Of a stretch of DNA of 64,000 nucleotides, positions 547 through 25,580 are shown piece by piece (positions within the stretch are counted from its first letter, which is position 1; each line of letters begins with the position of its first letter). The notes beneath the pieces were generated by a model, which made no database searches, was not told where the DNA came from, and was given only the letters and a program-made list of their open reading frames with translations. The position numbers and the translations under genes are program-made. The stretch lies in assembly GCA_000165345.1 (NCBI GenBank), contig CM000431.1:192001-256000 (forward strand), written 5' to 3'.

Positions 547-3138
547 CTAGTCTATTAAGATACAATTAGTGTATTCTTTATAAATCTTGTAATGAAGCTT
601 ATTATTTGTAGACCCTCCATTATCCAATTTCTCAAACAAATTACTCAATTGAGATTGGAAAACTTTTGTTGAATTTCTAGCAACTTCCAAAACATTTCCC
701 AAGTCACTCTTATCAATTTCATTCAAATTCTTACTTGAAATATTACCCACATATTTCAATGTTGATCTTGTAGCTATTGTTATCTTTCTTATTGTCTCAA
801 ATGTTGATGAAAATAAATTTGTCTTTATTGTACAATAAAAAAATTTATTCTCATACATACTCAATGGAACTGAATTAAATATGTGATCTGCTTCAATATT
901 TAATATTATTGTACGCCTTCTTGGTAGTAAAGAACTTGATAAAGCATTCAATGGAATTGGCCCATAATGTTCTCTTAAAGCAAATCCAAAAAAGAATCTA
1001 TTCTTCCACTCAATACTACAAATTCTTTTTGTTAATAATGATTTATTATTTCTATTAGATTCTCTCAATTTACCAGCTTTTGATGTTTTATCGCATAATT
1101 CCATATAACTATTAATTCTATCATTCACTATTGAACACATCTTTGTATTATGAGATTCATCAAATCCCCATGAATCAATATTACTTAACAAATAGTGAAT
1201 ATCAACATATGATGGATGTGATTCTGGTAAATTATTAAATAATGTTATTATATCATTAAAGAATTTACATGATGATAAAAATGTTAAATATATTGCTTTC
1301 GTATTTATTAAATCATAATTACATTGAGATTCTGGAAATCTTCCTGGTGAAATTTCTGATATCTTCTTTCTTATTGCTCTTGATAATTCTGTTGCATTTG
1401 CATTTAATGGTACTTGATTTAAAGCATCATTCAAAATTCCTGGAATGTGAATAGAATTCACTCCTCTTATTGGATTCAAATCATTCTCTATTAAATCATT
1501 TGTTAATAAATTCAAATGTGATGTCCCACTTTTTCTAAATTCCATCTCAATTCTTTCATCAATATTTATTCCTTTAAATGGTATTATTGGTATTACTACC
1601 ATATTAAATAAATGATATTCTTCAATACAGGTCAACTTTAAATGGCTTACTGTATCATCAATCAATACTGTTACAATCTCATCAATCTTTGATTTACTTC
1701 TTGTTTTAAATGGATATCTAAAATTATATTCAATCTCTAAATCTGTCAAATTATTTGAAATATTACCATAATAATATTCTTTTCTTAAAGATTCATCAGC
1801 TGAAACAATATGATCTCTAATTAATTCCATATCTTTACCTTTCCAAAATAATAAATTCTTTAAAGTTCCTGGACAATTTCTAAATTTGAATTCTTCTCCA
1901 TTAAATGATATTGTATTATGCTCTTTAGCTTCAAATACTCTTTTAAAATCTTGTGTTTGTATAGAATCATACTTTTCTGCAAAGTATCTATCATATACTC
2001 TCATTAAATCCCAACAAGAATAACAAAGAGATTTAAGAAAAGGAGATTGAAGCTTCATTAAAGTACCTCTTCCATAAGTAATTATATACTGATCAAGAAT
2101 TCTTGGATCATGTTGTTGTCTTTCTTTAATCATAAATAACAAACTCATTGTATAAGGATTAAATTTCCCAGCTCTACCATAAATAACACCCTTTTGAATA
2201 AAATTATAACTGTCCCATAAGGTTTTATCGACATCCCAAAGCATTAAAAGCCTGGAGTTAATATTAATCATTTCTTCAGTTTCAAAATCTTTATCTTCAA
2301 TAAAATTCATAACAGAAGCATCTTTAATATTATTAGGATCTTCTTCATGATGGTTGTGAAGTTGATAATGATGATTACTACTAATACTATTACTATCACT
2401 ACTCTCTGATTGATTTTGTTCACGATCTTGGATATCTAATAAAAACTTATTAACAGATGAGAAGCTCTGTACCTTAGCCATATCGTCTTTTTCTTCATTT
2501 TCTCTAATTAAAGAGCTTTTCTGCTGTTTTTTAGCTTGGCTCTGACCTTTTAAGAAATTTTTATCTTTCTCCAAAAATTGGTTAGATTCCTTTTCCGTAA
2601 TTTTAAGCTCAAAAAGTTCTGAACTTGATAAGAAGAAATAGTCCATAGACTTAAGAAAATGCATTGTATGATCACATAATGCTTCGCATAAAGTAGTTCG
2701 ACCAATTTTATCAGATACAGAATCTAAATTAGCCAAATGATGATCAGAATCATAAGGTATCAAACCACCAAAACAAGAATTAAAACAACAATCTTTGTAG
2801 TTGCTAATTCCTCTTGTTCCTCCATGTTTCAATATTTCCTCATAGAATTTAATGACATCAAATTCTTGGAATCCAGTACCAATTTCGGCAAAATTATCGG
2901 TTACAAAATCTGAAACTAGCATTGCAAGTATTGCCAATCTGAAAGGAGCTGGACCAGATTTCTTAGAAGAGCTTGATGTATAAGAATATCTGGTGTTGTT
3001 TGCTGACGTTAGCTTAACATCTTGATAGATTTCACAAGTACTTTTTTCTGAGGACTTAGCATCATTATTTTGAGCAAAAATATTAATAGCTCGAAATAGA
3101 AATGCAAATAAAACACAAAGTAAGCTAGAAGCTTTCAT
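547..3138 (-). CDS. Hypothetical secreted protein, 863 aa, no recognisable domain
   Basis: Uninterrupted ORF with an ATG at 3138-3136 (cat on the plus strand). N-terminal hydrophobic signal-peptide-like segment MKASSLLCVLFAFLFRAINIFAQ. Internal His/Asn/Ser-rich low-complexity insert. I found no catalytic motif I recognise. Confidence 0.6.
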   Translation of the reverse strand: MKASSLLCVLFAFLFRAINIFAQNNDAKSSEKSTCEIYQDVKLTSANNTRYSYTSSSSKKSGPAPFRLAILAMLVSDFVTDNFAEIGTGFQEFDVIKFYEEILKHGGTRGISNYKDCCFNSCFGGLIPYDSDHHLANLDSVSDKIGRTTLCEALCDHTMHFLKSMDYFFLSSSELFELKITEKESNQFLEKDKNFLKGQSQAKKQQKSSLIRENEEKDDMAKVQSFSSVNKFLLDIQDREQNQSESSDSNSISSNHHYQLHNHHEEDPNNIKDASVMNFIEDKDFETEEMININSRLLMLWDVDKTLWDSYNFIQKGVIYGRAGKFNPYTMSLLFMIKERQQHDPRILDQYIITYGRGTLMKLQSPFLKSLCYSCWDLMRVYDRYFAEKYDSIQTQDFKRVFEAKEHNTISFNGEEFKFRNCPGTLKNLLFWKGKDMELIRDHIVSADESLRKEYYYGNISNNLTDLEIEYNFRYPFKTRSKSKIDEIVTVLIDDTVSHLKLTCIEEYHLFNMVVIPIIPFKGINIDERIEMEFRKSGTSHLNLLTNDLIENDLNPIRGVNSIHIPGILNDALNQVPLNANATELSRAIRKKISEISPGRFPESQCNYDLINTKAIYLTFLSSCKFFNDIITLFNNLPESHPSYVDIHYLLSNIDSWGFDESHNTKMCSIVNDRINSYMELCDKTSKAGKLRESNRNNKSLLTKRICSIEWKNRFFFGFALREHYGPIPLNALSSSLLPRRRTIILNIEADHIFNSVPLSMYENKFFYCTIKTNLFSSTFETIRKITIATRSTLKYVGNISSKNLNEIDKSDLGNVLEVARNSTKVFQSQLSNLFEKLDNGGSTNNKLHYKIYKEYTNCILID

Positions 3139-3383
3139 TTTTTTTTTTCTGTTAGCTTGAAAATTTCTCTTTTACACTCCCTTGGCAAATATTTACCATT
3201 GAAATTTAACAAAATGTTTGTTAGCCAAGTTTATCAACACATGGATGATGAATTAGCTAAACAAAATGTCCTCAAAAGTAAGTCTTTCAAGTCTTTTTTG
3301 TCCCTGAATTAATTTATTATTTTAAGGAATCCACTAAATTACAGAGCTTGATTAATATAATATATGAAATTAGAATAGATCAT

Positions 3384-24600: not shown

Positions 24601-25580
24601 AAGATCAAGTAGATATTATTTTTGAAGAAAGTTCAGATGAGGAATTTAGTGATGAAGAAATCAAGGAGAGAGAAGAAAGAAACCGAAAATCTATGGAATT
24701 GTTGGAGAAAATTGAAAAGAAAATTGAACAGATGGAAGAAGAAGAGCTAAAGTCAAAAAAGAATAAGAAAATGATGGATAAACTTATTAAAAAAGAAGCT
24801 TTAGCTTATTCGAAAAACAATTTAAAAGAAAAAGAGTTAGTCAAATTACTAAGAGATTTTCTTAGTGCTTATGCTACCAAAGGGACTGCTGGACTTGCTA
24901 GATTCTGTAAAAAACAAGGGTCTGACAAAATTGAGCAACTTGTTGCCTACATTTCTACAAAAGAAGGAAGGAAAATGTCAAGAAAGCTTGCAAAGAAAAT
25001 TGTGGAAAGAGAAAAGAGAAGAAACAGAGGGAAAATAAATTCAAGAAGAGTTATCCCCACTGGTAGAAATCTTTTGTTGAATGTTGAATATTCAGTCATG
25101 CCTAAAATTGCTCAATATTCAGAGTTTGATGAAGATTCATCTTCCATCTACACAAGCGAAAGCGAAAGTAGCAATTTAAGTCAATCAGAAGATGAAGAAA
25201 GCCAAAGCATTCATCATGTTAGAAATTCCTCCAAGAAAAGAAAGAAATCATCCAAAATCAATGATGAAAGTCTTGAAAAAAATTACCTCAATGGGGATTT
25301 GGATACTGTTACAAACATCCAAAAAAGTAAGAAAAAAAGTAAAATTATTAAAGCTTTTAAAAAAATACCCGTTATATCTCCAACTATATCATTCCTTTAC
25401 TCTCATCTATCAAACAGAGGTAAGAAAAAGAGAAAAGCAAAAAAATACATTAAAACAATACGAAAGCTAGAAATCCAATTTAGGAGAAAAGCTTATGGTC
25501 ATTTTCAAGAAAAAGAATATCAAAAAGGAAATGAACTTAGCCAAGATGATGATCAATTTATGTATTTAATGAGTTACTAA
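21618..25580 (+). CDS. Hypothetical secreted Lys/Glu-rich protein, 1320 aa
   Basis: ATG at 21618. Signal-peptide-like METRFRTITCIIFLTIIRVLIFNAHVVA. Long charged low-complexity C-terminal half with SESESSNLSQSEDEESQS and K-rich runs. Uninterrupted ORF. No recognised domain. Confidence 0.6.
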   Translation: METRFRTITCIIFLTIIRVLIFNAHVVACKDLHGNGKVTLKYPPYSGLEEESFQIIEEKSLGDYFAIGETKLKSLFGIEGEDGIKIRVNEIEVERSELKHSISEFKLAEDEDIVIELFLKDELDLQYRSRRVKDQMDGFGEKGENNFSKQEGILFLSFSSIDNEELVSFSNVPKTVSVKEKLPMTVEELKKMIENFANPLEFSIESVTTVRNPEKELVTELMNSKYQSKIADLENGDSIKVKIREITLNIGENNDEEMNYETNNFRKENLESSEGIQGNFPVMIVFSNRREVPNNVINLNEDSSVGDLLERLYEVKYPGTGNTVISSGDRIAIQNEQGREVDQINELELKEFVPEGINVSKNRPFLIYVTVFGSNNENTKEEYNESSMRQDFSEIFEPRNGKEIEELMFNIKDQVKAIESDLEGIQDKKRGSDAPIVRFVNQEGNLEYEIKGDPSLITIASLYSQAQLVWNSRGKNERNCVLIYGNDDMILDPNNHETLSTLKGYFQGMRITMREPRKVNAEITAYLSIGKEMGNNQLDTKIAFTRNLEVPEIISVIDFLKMIYSNYNSELSKYLIVGIQKDIGNERLTEYLPVPKTPSSITYLTFQSKRSDLNVLLEVIPAKSIEIMLMIPPNSAGEDLSEKTEDSDSNDEFLLEYRLKILSNTTIRELIESLIENKVLDKSISPKTVQIKDKETNTYLNSNYIIGHHLSEKANRRKKGLNKKIFVVEIIKKLNLNVMFYNYKGEELQIEPFQVKVKSNQSIKKLKEDIVSIGVKNGFSVNIAQIGLGSGFDIGKEFKKIVYTILKDSDQVQNSGFVQNDDLRVYVLKESQEEPENKEEFGNENQVKFENMESDQGPKLEIPLSIENCPLNTMLERRWFIVPMSLGLPIGELKELIDNIAMLRGMDFDLFGETEKGKMELSEESKSCLSLGITELGNLTAICNGKKSNRDVKKEEFNKSVSQAIFDDICEDDGNSDKCSKPTGEVLDKISNYKKDQVDIIFEESSDEEFSDEEIKEREERNRKSMELLEKIEKKIEQMEEEELKSKKNKKMMDKLIKKEALAYSKNNLKEKELVKLLRDFLSAYATKGTAGLARFCKKQGSDKIEQLVAYISTKEGRKMSRKLAKKIVEREKRRNRGKINSRRVIPTGRNLLLNVEYSVMPKIAQYSEFDEDSSSIYTSESESSNLSQSEDEESQSIHHVRNSSKKRKKSSKINDESLEKNYLNGDLDTVTNIQKSKKKSKIIKAFKKIPVISPTISFLYSHLSNRGKKKRKAKKYIKTIRKLEIQFRRKAYGHFQEKEYQKGNELSQDDDQFMYLMSY

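Follow-up and report, generated by a model that had tools for sequence, protein, structure and literature searches.

A secretory-gene-rich block in the interior of chromosome 3 of Cryptosporidium parvum

The subtelomeric secreted multigene families of Cryptosporidium include MEDLE, SKSR, FLGN and the insulinase-like proteases, whose members are paralogous, lie at chromosome ends, and are polymorphic in copy number and sequence. The genes described here resemble these families in having a signal peptide, in being restricted to the genus and mostly domain-less, and in their presumed role at the interface with the host or environment. They differ in being single-copy, unrelated to their neighbours, syntenic and about 195 kb inside the chromosome, with dN/dS values of 0.08-0.30.

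Two further systems are pertinent. The apicomplexan mucin-like glycoproteins gp900 (cgd7_4020) and gp40/15 resemble the giant mucin-like protein encoded by cgd3_720 in their signal peptide, their long runs of Thr and their polymorphism in indels. The cgd3_720 protein is far larger and consists of fourteen Cys-containing modules of ~630 aa with Thr-rich linkers between them (one Thr/Ser run has 360 residues, nt 46233-47312). Moreover, cgd3_720 is expressed in females and late, whereas gp900 has been grouped with the microneme markers, whose peak is at 12 hpi (PMC12604037). The second system is the oocyst-wall cargo of macrogamonts, namely the COWPs and the 69-gene set of Tandel et al. 2019, which cgd3_680, cgd3_710 and cgd3_720 resemble as female-upregulated signal-peptide proteins that include a protease and a mucin; unlike the COWPs, these three lack COWP-type Cys-rich repeats according to Pfam, and cgd3_650, cgd3_660 and cgd3_700 do not show the female expression pattern of such cargo.

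Chromosomal position and composition

The stretch of DNA that we analyzed (the window, 64,000 nucleotides) is part of C. parvum chromosome 3 and includes the genes cgd3_650 to cgd3_730. Its ORFs have exact protein matches in Iowa II and further C. parvum strains, and the window is 100% identical to CP044420.1 across 19,362 bp. The five ORFs on which the original prediction was built are all present at exactly the coordinates it gave and correspond to genes already annotated in C. parvum (Table 1). Published qPCR primers fall on the ORFs of cgd3_650, 660, 670, 680, 690, 710 and 720.

The locus had been placed next to a chromosome end. In three complete C. parvum assemblies it is found instead at about 195-259 kb of a 1.10-Mb chromosome, and its C. 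hominis counterpart is at 181-226 kb. The CCTAAA-like sequence at the left edge of the window, which had been read as telomeric or subtelomeric, is the cut edge of an interstitial minisatellite that extends over ~710 bp in CP044420.1 (L001 ~1150-1860, window position 1 being L001 position 1462). This array is situated between cgd3_640, which encodes an acyl-CoA synthetase, and cgd3_650; in C. hominis, the corresponding spacer contains an orthologous array of lesser length.

The run of signal-peptide genes is not contiguous, as it had been called. It is broken by the ABC transporter gene cgd3_690, and the 2.3-kb spacer between cgd3_660 and cgd3_670 houses three 5S rRNA genes (6832..8204), to which the repeats detected in this spacer are due.

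Table 1. Features of the window, with positions counted from its first nucleotide.
Feature	Position (nt)	Strand	Description
Interstitial minisatellite, right-hand part	1..403		13-nt unit GCCTAAATTCCAA, 52-nt higher order (TRF)
cgd3_650 (ORF1)	547-3138	-	863 aa
cgd3_650 signal peptide	3073-3138	-	aa 1-22, cleavage candidate IFA/QN
cgd3_650 first invariant motif, D302-T306	2221-2235		within SRLLxLWDVDxTL
cgd3_650 second invariant motif			IVTxLIDD, aa 488-495
cgd3_660 (ORF2)	3603-6251	-	882 aa
cgd3_660 signal peptide	6186-6251	-	aa 1-22, cleavage candidate VEG/AP
5S rRNA gene 1	6832-6951	+	Rfam RF00001, 102.5 bits, full length
5S rRNA gene 2	7405-7524	-	Rfam RF00001, 102.5 bits, full length
5S rRNA gene 3	8085-8204	-	Rfam RF00001, 102.5 bits, full length
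cgd3_670 (ORF3)	8540-10288	+	582 aa
cgd3_670 signal peptide	8540-8611	+	aa 1-24, cleavage candidate TLA/EN
cgd3_670 mu-like GST fold	8681-9403	+	aa ~48-288 (phmmer, hhalign)
cgd3_680	10658..12211	-	intron-containing cysteine protease of the papain family (Peptidase_C1); annotated assemblies give 412 aa
cgd3_690	12904..17664	+	ABC transporter, 1586 aa, polytopic, without signal peptide
cgd3_700 (ORF4)	18063-21200	+	1045 aa in the window
cgd3_700 signal peptide	through 18140	+	aa 1-25/26
cgd3_710 (ORF5)	21618-25580	+	1320 aa
cgd3_710 signal peptide	21618-21701	+	aa 1-28, cleavage candidate VVA/CK
cgd3_720 (giant ORF)	26067-61157	+	11,696 aa
cgd3_720 signal peptide		+	aa 1-24
cgd3_730	62389..63648	+	alpha/beta hydrolase, 419 aa, N-terminal signal-anchor-like segment aa ~23-45

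Signal peptides and their density

Signal peptides were called with a heuristic based on hydrophobicity and the -3/-1 positions, together with the labels given by other annotators. By this heuristic, the signal-peptide-like N-termini that had been noticed are canonical in all five ORFs, each with a short n-region followed by a hydrophobic core, whose best 10-residue stretch has a Kyte-Doolittle mean of 2.56-3.28, and with a candidate cleavage site at residues 22-28 that has small residues at -3/-1; the h-region of cgd3_700 is short, with 8 uncharged residues. Independent annotators use the name “signal peptide-containing protein” for the orthologues of cgd3_710 and for the C. canis orthologue of cgd3_650. 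The N-terminus of the cgd3_680 protease is also hydrophobic (MTVILSLSNPQFLVFALFQILMILSIINVS). The low-complexity blocks are as first described: a Ser/Asn/Asp block at about aa 556-596 of cgd3_660, poly-Pro and an acidic tail in cgd3_700, and a Lys/Glu-rich C-terminal third in cgd3_710. In cgd3_700, the poly-Pro core is variable and lies between conserved N- and C-terminal domains; the protein has 1036, 1056 or 1076 aa in complete assemblies, and the window sequence of the gene includes 283 scattered N at 19550-20123.

The hydrophobic N-termini might alternatively be signal anchors or ER-retention features of proteins that reside in the endomembrane system and are not secreted, a reading consistent with a weak hydrophobic stretch in cgd3_660 (aa 338-356, KD 1.66), the sole internal one among the five ORFs, and with the UniRef name “integral membrane protein” of its C. 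meleagridis orthologue. We consider this quite improbable, given that small-residue -3/-1 sites come right after a short h-region in six of six proteins, that none of the six ends in a K/HDEL-type sequence or has a second strong membrane segment, and that cgd3_660 was found in culture secretome fractions (PMC12604037). A hydrophobicity scan of the five ORFs found no C-terminal hydrophobic tail. The secretome record, a 3/6-hpi invasion list that includes cgd3_660, whose transcription peaks at 12 hpi, is itself weak evidence of secretion because the same list holds many cytosolic proteins (PMC12604037). We favor cleavable signal peptides, through which each product would most likely enter the ER and then be routed as soluble cargo to the secretory compartment active at its stage of expression.

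Seven of the nine neighbouring genes encode signal peptides. With 15-25% of genes assumed to carry one, the local probability of this count is P = 3e-4 at a genome base rate of 20%, and a 7/9 window of this kind appears somewhere in ~49% of random 3,900-gene genomes. Signal-peptide proteins are unusually dense at this locus, and the chance that an equally dense run arises fortuitously somewhere in the genome is about even.

Conservation, selection and protein families

As far as the searches reach, the giant gene and the five ORFs are confined to Cryptosporidium; all six are single-copy and unrelated to one another. In an all-versus-all blastp comparison of the six proteins, no cross match was better than E = 0.39, and the gene order is the same in C. 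hominis, C. ubiquitum and C. felis. No matches outside Cryptosporidium were found for cgd3_650, cgd3_660 and cgd3_710, with the restriction of the last two coming from a word-indexed search that is able to miss distant relatives; within this scope, the proposed lineage specificity is supported at the level of the genus. The description of the genes as fast-evolving, by contrast, disagrees with their dN/dS values relative to C. hominis, which are 0.20 for cgd3_650, 0.23 for cgd3_660, 0.08 for cgd3_670, 0.30 for cgd3_700 and 0.26 for cgd3_710 (controls: 0.05 for the ABC transporter and 0.00 for ACS), and with the 99% and 90% protein identity of cgd3_670 to its C. hominis and C. ubiquitum orthologues. 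The five ORFs are under purifying selection.

These data bear on the original prediction as a whole, that is, a secretome island of ~60 kb in a subtelomere, made up of lineage-specific host-interaction genes that evolve fast. In each of three complete assemblies the block lies ~195 kb into the chromosome, which refutes the island as subtelomeric, and the CCTAAA-containing repeats that spoke for it belong to an interstitial array with a shorter form in C. hominis, downstream of an acyl-CoA synthetase gene. The high proportion of signal peptides and the failure to find homologues outside the genus are compatible with such an island; the absence of paralogues, the conserved gene order, the low dN/dS values and the 5S rRNA genes inside the block are not. 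In the extracts of two population studies, cgd3_720 is described as a hot spot of indels and SNPs, which would fit the island, and is the sole gene named from the region, which would not. Overall, we regard this reading as extremely improbable.

The proteins had also been said to contain no recognisable domain or catalytic motif. No known domain was found in cgd3_660 or cgd3_710, but the statement fails for cgd3_670, which has a GST fold, and for cgd3_650, which has an invariant DxDxT motif. A phmmer search of cgd3_670 against PDB gave 32 sequences with E no higher than 1, nearly all of them GSTs (best E = 9e-5); hhalign against human GSTM1 gave 91.3% probability and E = 1e-6, covering residues 3-202 of 218, and the Pfam GST_C_3 threshold is missed by 0.1 bit. 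As in the mu/sigma cytosolic GSTs, of which GSTM1 is an example, the alignment spans the entire fold, and the protein retains the Tyr of GYWD (Y52), the NLP(F/Y)L(I/V)D motif (NLP113F) and the T-x-x-D N-capping box (T230-IPD), with a T-E-T stretch (T128-E-T130) where those enzymes have T-Q-S. Unlike them, it begins with a signal peptide and ends in ~290 additional residues that are helical and contain Cys. Judged by its sequence, cgd3_670 carries a mu-like GST fold with a catalytic-type Tyr and may have enzymatic activity. The published census of Cryptosporidium GSTs lists three genes, cgd7_4780, cgd8_2970 and cgd2_3730, and cgd3_670 is not among them (PMC7683740).

Full-length orthologues of cgd3_650 are present in C. 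muris and C. andersoni, and its two motifs are fully conserved between C. parvum and C. muris at an overall identity of 31%. These motifs raise the question of whether the protein is a divergent secreted HAD/FCP1-type phosphatase, and hence an enzyme and not a domain-less protein: SRLLxLWDVDxTL resembles HAD motif I (hhhhDxDxT), IVTxLIDD is motif-IV-like, corresponding to the downstream hhhhDD motif of FCP1/SCP (NIF) phosphatases, and the UniRef entry for the orthologue in C. hominis is named “FCP1 homology domain-containing protein”. Profile-level similarity to these phosphatases was nevertheless not found. Pfam gives no NIF or HAD match at E <= 0.1, phmmer and the family profile find no FCP1/SCP match among all PDB sequences, and aligning the family to the catalytic domain of human SCP1 with hhalign returns 0.2% probability. 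When 1.84 billion representatives were searched exhaustively with the family profile, three proteins were recovered, all from Cryptosporidium, among them the full-length C. muris and C. andersoni orthologues, and none of them a HAD protein. The motifs are ~190 aa apart, compared to ~110 aa in SCP1. The AF2 model (pLDDT 34) is too low in confidence for use. A phosphatase of this type is thus unlikely; cgd3_650 is a genus-wide conserved protein for which the sequence comparisons do not support FCP1 homology.

Stage expression and reading of the region

Expression across the run is heterogeneous, with cgd3_680 and cgd3_710 expressed in the female stage, cgd3_720 specific to it, and cgd3_660 expressed in asexual stages. 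The female versus asexual logFC values are -0.09 for cgd3_660, +1.91 for cgd3_670, +5.46 for cgd3_680, +0.44 for cgd3_690, +2.08 for cgd3_710 and +5.41 for cgd3_720, while the published tables show no differential expression for cgd3_650 or cgd3_700, the latter being absent from them (Tandel 2019). Published qPCR data show a late onset for cgd3_680, 710 and 720, the transcript of the last being undetectable before 48 h (PMC3305300).

The joint female upregulation of cgd3_670, 680, 710 and 720 leaves room for a real co-regulated neighbourhood as opposed to pure coincidence. Under this alternative, the genes from cgd3_670 or cgd3_680 through cgd3_720 would form a female-stage secretory neighbourhood. 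Its products, namely the protease, the cgd3_710 protein, the giant mucin and perhaps the GST-like protein, would act together in the construction of wall-forming bodies, of the oocyst wall or of tethers for the sporozoites. The late onset of three of these genes points in this direction, as does the precedent of the female-biased candidate oocyst-wall genes, which mostly bear signal peptides and include proteases (Tandel 2019). The order of the genes is retained in C. ubiquitum and C. felis, but this is not specific evidence for co-regulation because synteny is general in the genus. Moreover, cgd3_690, inside the run, has no female bias, cgd3_700 is missing from the differential-expression tables, and the logFC magnitudes lie more than 3 log2 units apart. 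We hold such a neighbourhood to be possible, though doubtful.

The island also fails as a unit, since its six proteins have no mutual similarity, differ in stage expression and flank housekeeping 5S rRNA genes in the middle of the block. Within an ordinary secretory stretch, cgd3_660 would be an asexual-stage product released around invasion, and cgd3_670 a secreted GST-fold protein of sporozoites and females. The cgd3_710 protein, together with the cgd3_680 protease and the cgd3_720 mucin, would be made by macrogamonts and probably delivered to wall-forming bodies, the oocyst wall or a sporozoite-tethering matrix. The internal position, the unrelated, single-copy and genus-conserved genes, and the purifying selection acting on them indicate that there is nothing out of the ordinary in this stretch of secretory genes, which is no subtelomeric island of fast evolution. 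The block from cgd3_650 to cgd3_730 is therefore very probably an internal, syntenic part of chromosome 3 that happens to be rich in secretory-pathway genes, neither a functional unit nor a subtelomeric virulence island.

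Identity of the genes and their internal chromosomal position

The DNA has a GC content of about 30%, and its ORFs are long and nearly without introns. By exact look-up, the products of 582, 1586, 1320, 419 and 863 amino acids correspond to C. parvum Iowa II EAK89195, EAK89194, EAK89193, EAK89191 and EAK89198, respectively, and the same or nearly the same proteins are present in other C. parvum strains, C. hominis, C. meleagridis, C. tyzzeri and C. ubiquitum. Positions 1-19362 of the window are 100% identical to CP044420.1, chromosome 3 of C. parvum. Published qPCR primers for cgd3_650, cgd3_660, cgd3_670 and cgd3_710 map to ORF1, ORF2, ORF3 and ORF5, while those for cgd3_680, cgd3_690 and cgd3_720 map to the papain-like gene, the ABC transporter and the giant gene; ORF4 is cgd3_700, assigned by elimination. 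The five ORFs and the giant ORF were found where the original prediction had placed them, together with the low-complexity blocks that it named. Existing annotation already covers the genes, their signal peptides and the mucin character of cgd3_720.

Coordinates, dN/dS values and expression of the features in the window. Expression values are log2 CPM of sorted parasites, taken from supplementary file 4 of Tandel et al. 2019, and logFC compares female with asexual parasites.
Feature	Position	Strand	dN/dS vs C. hominis	dN/dS vs C. ubiquitum	Asexual	Female in vitro	Female in vivo	logFC
Minisatellite, right-hand portion	1-403							
cgd3_650 (ORF1)	547-3138	-	0.20					
cgd3_660 (ORF2)	3603-6251	-	0.23		7.70	7.61	5.25	-0.09
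5S rRNA gene (RF00001, 102.5 bits)	6832-6951	+						
5S rRNA gene (RF00001, 102.5 bits)	7405-7524	-						
5S rRNA gene (RF00001, 102.5 bits)	8085-8204	-						
cgd3_670 (ORF3)	8540-10288	+	0.08		8.38	10.28	7.70	+1.91
cgd3_680 (papain-family protease)	10658-12211	-			1.39	6.85	5.47	+5.46
cgd3_690 (ABC transporter, control)	12904-17664	+	0.05		8.98	9.42	7.22	+0.44
cgd3_700 (ORF4)	18063-21200	+	0.30	0.26				
ORF over poly-Pro (CCN) tract	19086-20207	-						
ORF over poly-Pro (CCN) tract	19210-19533	+						
Pro-rich core of cgd3_700 with N	19550-20123							
cgd3_710 (ORF5)	21618-25580	+	0.26	0.19	5.77	7.85	8.40	+2.08
cgd3_720 (giant gene)	26067-61157	+	0.12 (N-terminal part)		3.79	9.19	9.34	+5.41
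ORF over poly-Thr (ACN) tract	46205-47339	-						
Thr/Ser run of cgd3_720	46233-47312							
Acyl-CoA synthetase fragment (control)			0.00					

The genes had been thought to lie next to a chromosome end. Three complete assemblies of chromosome 3, each of 1.10 Mb, place cgd3_670 at about 203.5 kb, which puts position 1 of the window at about 195 kb; the gene directly upstream is the AMP-binding acyl-CoA synthetase cgd3_640, and the equivalent arrangement in C. hominis occupies 181-226 kb. The supposed telomere adjacency was likewise not borne out, since the repeat at 1-403 is interstitial and four assemblies, three from C. parvum and one from C. hominis, show the locus to be internal. This repeat is the right-hand portion of a minisatellite of about 710 bp, built from the 13-nt unit GCCTAAATTCCAA with a higher-order period of 52 nt. 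It includes the telomere-like hexamer CCTAAA, never in a tandem telomere array. The full array lies at about 1150-1860 of our excerpt of CP044420.1 (L001), and the orthologous minisatellite in the same spacer of C. hominis (excerpt L011, about 12730-13010) is shorter, at about 280 bp. The minisatellite may be what is left of a degenerated telomere-like sequence. The chromosome end itself is an artefact of a window boundary that cuts this CCTAAA-rich repeat.

The run of signal-peptide genes had also been described as contiguous, when in fact it is interrupted by the polytopic ABC transporter cgd3_690 and by three 5S rRNA genes. The latter are full-length (Rfam RF00001), with one inverted relative to the other two, and they account for the repeats in the spacer that separates cgd3_660 from cgd3_670, which at 2.3 kb is unusually long. 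No tRNA genes were found in the 64-kb window.

Some annotation irregularities were observed in the same segment. The exact 882-aa sequence of ORF2 was absent from the protein collection by look-up, and the deposited cgd3_660 models measure 621, 659 and 882 aa, yet CP044420.1 matches the window DNA exactly, with an unbroken 882-aa ORF; the disagreement is an annotation inconsistency around a Ser/Asn-rich block. The long antisense or out-of-frame ORFs over poly-Pro and poly-Thr tracts are most likely low-complexity artefacts and not genes.

Signal peptides, clustering and selection

Signal peptides were called heuristically, from Kyte-Doolittle hydrophobicity and a scan for small residues at -3/-1. 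As had been predicted, all six proteins (the five ORFs and the giant) have signal-peptide-like N-termini, with a short n-region, a strong h-region (best 10-residue mean of 2.56-3.28) and small residues at -3/-1 of candidate cleavage sites at residues 22-28. Beyond residue 40, a 19-residue window at KD >= 1.6 detected no further membrane segment in these proteins except a borderline stretch in ORF2 (1.66). Their C-termini are hydrophilic, with neither a hydrophobic tail nor a K/HDEL ending. Other annotators have named the ORF5 orthologues, and one C. canis orthologue of ORF1, "signal peptide-containing protein". Among the neighbours, the protease cgd3_680 has a hydrophobic N-terminus and the alpha/beta hydrolase cgd3_730 a signal-anchor-like segment, and the same scan gave no signal peptide for cgd3_690. 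Of the six proteins, cgd3_660 alone is included in a published secretome list, which also contains many cytosolic proteins; it is listed at 3/6 hpi, and its transcript peaks at 12 hpi (PMC12604037). Peptides of cgd3_710 were detected in a published IP-MS table.

The six proteins do not form a gene family: all-against-all BLASTP revealed no significant similarity among them (best cross match, E = 0.39), and therefore the cluster was not formed by duplication. Database searches with ORF1, ORF2 and ORF5 returned solely orthologues, one per species. Seven of nine neighbouring genes with a signal peptide correspond to a local P of 3e-4 at a base rate of 20%. When 3,900-gene genomes were simulated at assumed base rates of 15%, 20% and 25%, at least one such window occurred in 10%, 49% and 93% of them, respectively, so that clustering of signal-peptide genes beyond chance is suggestive at best.

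The expected lineage specificity was supported for ORF1, ORF2 and ORF5, whose searches match Cryptosporidium alone. Identity of ORF1 to its orthologues falls from 98% (C. hominis) through 83% (chipmunk genotype I), 73% (C. ubiquitum), 69% (C. canis) and 55% (C. felis) to 52% (C. xiaoi and C. ryanae). When the HMMER profile of this family was run exhaustively against 1.84 billion representative proteins, it gave three matches only, all from Cryptosporidium; full-length orthologues in C. muris and C. andersoni (E = 3e-130, 31% identity) are among them. For ORF3, identity reaches 99% in C. hominis, 98% in C. tyzzeri, 95% in C. meleagridis and 90% in C. ubiquitum.

Fast evolution, the other property attributed to these genes, did not hold. 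According to the Nei-Gojobori method, dN/dS between C. parvum and C. hominis is 0.08-0.30 for the five ORFs, and 0.19-0.26 for ORF4 and ORF5 when compared with C. ubiquitum. These ratios clearly point to purifying selection on genus-specific genes, which are somewhat less constrained than the two neighbour controls, the ABC transporter and the acyl-CoA synthetase. In the available excerpts of two population studies, cgd3_720 is the only gene of the region named as hypervariable. A subtelomeric, fast-evolving island is thus ruled out by position, paralogy and evolutionary rate.

Domain searches and a GST-fold match in cgd3_670

The proteins had been described as having no recognisable domains. 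For Pfam this remains true of ORF1, ORF2, ORF4 and ORF5, and the giant protein outside its mucin regions also has no Pfam domain. ORF3 (cgd3_670) differs, as it matches the GST fold in sequence and profile alignments. A phmmer search of all PDB sequences with cgd3_670 retrieved 32 sequences with E no higher than 1, nearly all of them GSTs (best E = 9.3e-5), with alignments covering chain residues 3-210, the whole fold. Compared by hhalign with human GSTM1, the orthologue alignment gave a probability of 91.3% (E = 9.6e-7) over residues 3-202 of 218, and the similarity extends over the thioredoxin-like N-domain as well as the helical C-domain. Residues Y52 (GYWD), P113 (NLPF) and T230-I-P-D233 align with the matching GSTM1 residues. 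Orthologues show no variation at Y52, in the NLP(F)LVD loop, in a T-E-T that replaces T-Q-S, or in the T-I-P-D box; in GSTs, the Tyr, the Pro and the box at these positions are the catalytic Tyr, the cis-Pro loop and the N-capping box S/T-x-x-D. Against Pfam, the protein scored 21.5 bits for GST_C_3, with a cut-off of 21.6, and gave no GST_N match. An AlphaFold2 model from a 7-sequence alignment was too low in confidence to be used (pLDDT 31). These alignments give good support to a mu-like GST fold in cgd3_670, behind its signal peptide and followed by a helical extension of about 290 aa that contains Cys. The published GST census for Cryptosporidium lists only cgd7_4780, cgd8_2970 and cgd2_3730 (PMC7683740), and a 2026 paper characterised a 161-aa enzyme of the cytosolic type; the GST fold of cgd3_670, missing from that census, is a modest addition.

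The UniRef automatic name of the C. hominis cgd3_650 orthologue, "FCP1 homology domain", and a DxDxT motif led us to pursue FCP1/HAD homology. LLxLWDVDxTL, which fits the pattern of motif I, hhhhDxDx(T/V), is invariant in all orthologues, including those of C. muris and C. andersoni, and IVTxLIDD is invariant out to C. muris. The homology itself is unsupported: Pfam gave no match to cgd3_650, phmmer and hmmsearch of the PDB with the sequence and the family profile gave no FCP1/HAD match, hhalign of the family with the SCP1 catalytic domain gave a probability of 0.2%, and no HAD proteins were among the profile matches in the 1.84 billion representatives. The AlphaFold2 model, from nine aligned sequences, was again too poor to use (pLDDT 34). 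An FCP1/HAD-type phosphatase, which the motif and the automatic name would suggest, is accordingly of low probability, and the modest addition here is that cgd3_650 is conserved genus-wide with an invariant DxDxT motif.

We also considered, and rejected, ubiquitin-like/beta-grasp repeats for cgd3_710 and beta-domain repeats for cgd3_660, as window-versus-window hhalign of the orthologue alignments gave top probabilities of at most 6% in both cases. The cgd3_660 family profile found only chance matches in the PDB (E > 0.4). For the giant protein and full-length cgd3_700, the Pfam matches were of low complexity or below threshold (Mucin, SSP160, AglB_core-like).

The conserved N- and C-terminal domains of cgd3_700 share 67% and 60% identity with C. 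ubiquitum, and the poly-Pro core between them, present in both species, varies in sequence and length. Among three C. parvum assemblies the protein length is 1036, 1056 or 1076 aa, compared with 994 aa for C. hominis, and in the window the core contains 283 scattered N, single or in short runs; the poly-Pro tract is therefore either truly length-variable or hard to assemble. The giant protein consists of 14 tandem modules marked by SPQCGP at a spacing of 614-667 aa and set apart by Thr-rich linkers, with one Thr/Ser run of 360 residues. Its length is 11,696 or 11,643 aa depending on the assembly, and the gene has been reported to be an indel hot spot. In cgd3_690, Pfam sees the second transmembrane and second nucleotide-binding domains only; by eye, the first nucleotide-binding region keeps LSGGQ and has no obvious Walker A, so this domain may be degenerate. 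The protease gene cgd3_680 is split by introns, which are uncommon in this genome.

Expression in female stages and biological meaning

In the tables of Tandel et al. 2019, cgd3_670, cgd3_680, cgd3_710 and cgd3_720 are up-regulated in females and cgd3_660 is not; cgd3_650 and cgd3_700 are absent from the differential-expression lists. The protease is among the most female-specific genes of the region. In a qPCR time course, the cgd3_720 transcript was nil before 48 h (PMC3305300), and cgd3_680 and cgd3_710 showed late onset. Tandel et al. 2019 reported a signal peptide for most of the female-biased candidates for oocyst-wall genes, with proteases among them.

The main live alternative to chance proximity is that the genes from cgd3_670/680 to cgd3_720 constitute a real co-regulated female neighbourhood. 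Alongside the shared female bias, C. ubiquitum has the same order and orientation of the protease, the ABC transporter, cgd3_700, cgd3_710 and the giant gene, and C. felis keeps cgd3_700, cgd3_710 and cgd3_720 in order; within the same run, cgd3_690 is not female-biased. The reading with the best support is an ordinary stretch of internal chromosome in which secretory-pathway genes happen to be frequent. Most likely, its unrelated, genus-specific and constrained products would enter the ER via cleavable signal peptides and then be sent to stage-specific destinations. The cgd3_660 product would be released around invasion, cgd3_670 would act as an exported GST-fold protein, and cgd3_710, the protease and the giant mucin would be made in macrogamonts and would probably serve wall-forming bodies, tethers or the wall of the oocyst.

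A more ambitious and rather unlikely proposal is that cgd3_670 is a fourth, uncatalogued Cryptosporidium GST, exported through the secretory pathway, near-invariant among intestinal species at 90-99% identity, and carrying a unique fused helical domain that contains Cys. Its site of action would lie beyond the parasite cytosol, whether in the parasitophorous vacuole, in the oocyst or in the secretory system of the gamont, and its role would be ligand binding or detoxification, perhaps within a co-regulated female-stage neighbourhood, cgd3_670-cgd3_720, that aids oocyst building. Since GSTs have already been proposed as drug targets in Cryptosporidium, this overlooked, highly conserved and predicted exported member merits a biochemical test.

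Our main result is the clearing of an artefact, a window edge within a minisatellite that had been taken for a chromosome end; once this is corrected, the interpretation as a subtelomeric virulence island falls. What remains is a set of annotated, uncharacterised, genus-specific secretory proteins, which are reasonable tagging candidates for mapping secretory organelles and the biogenesis of the oocyst wall in Cryptosporidium.
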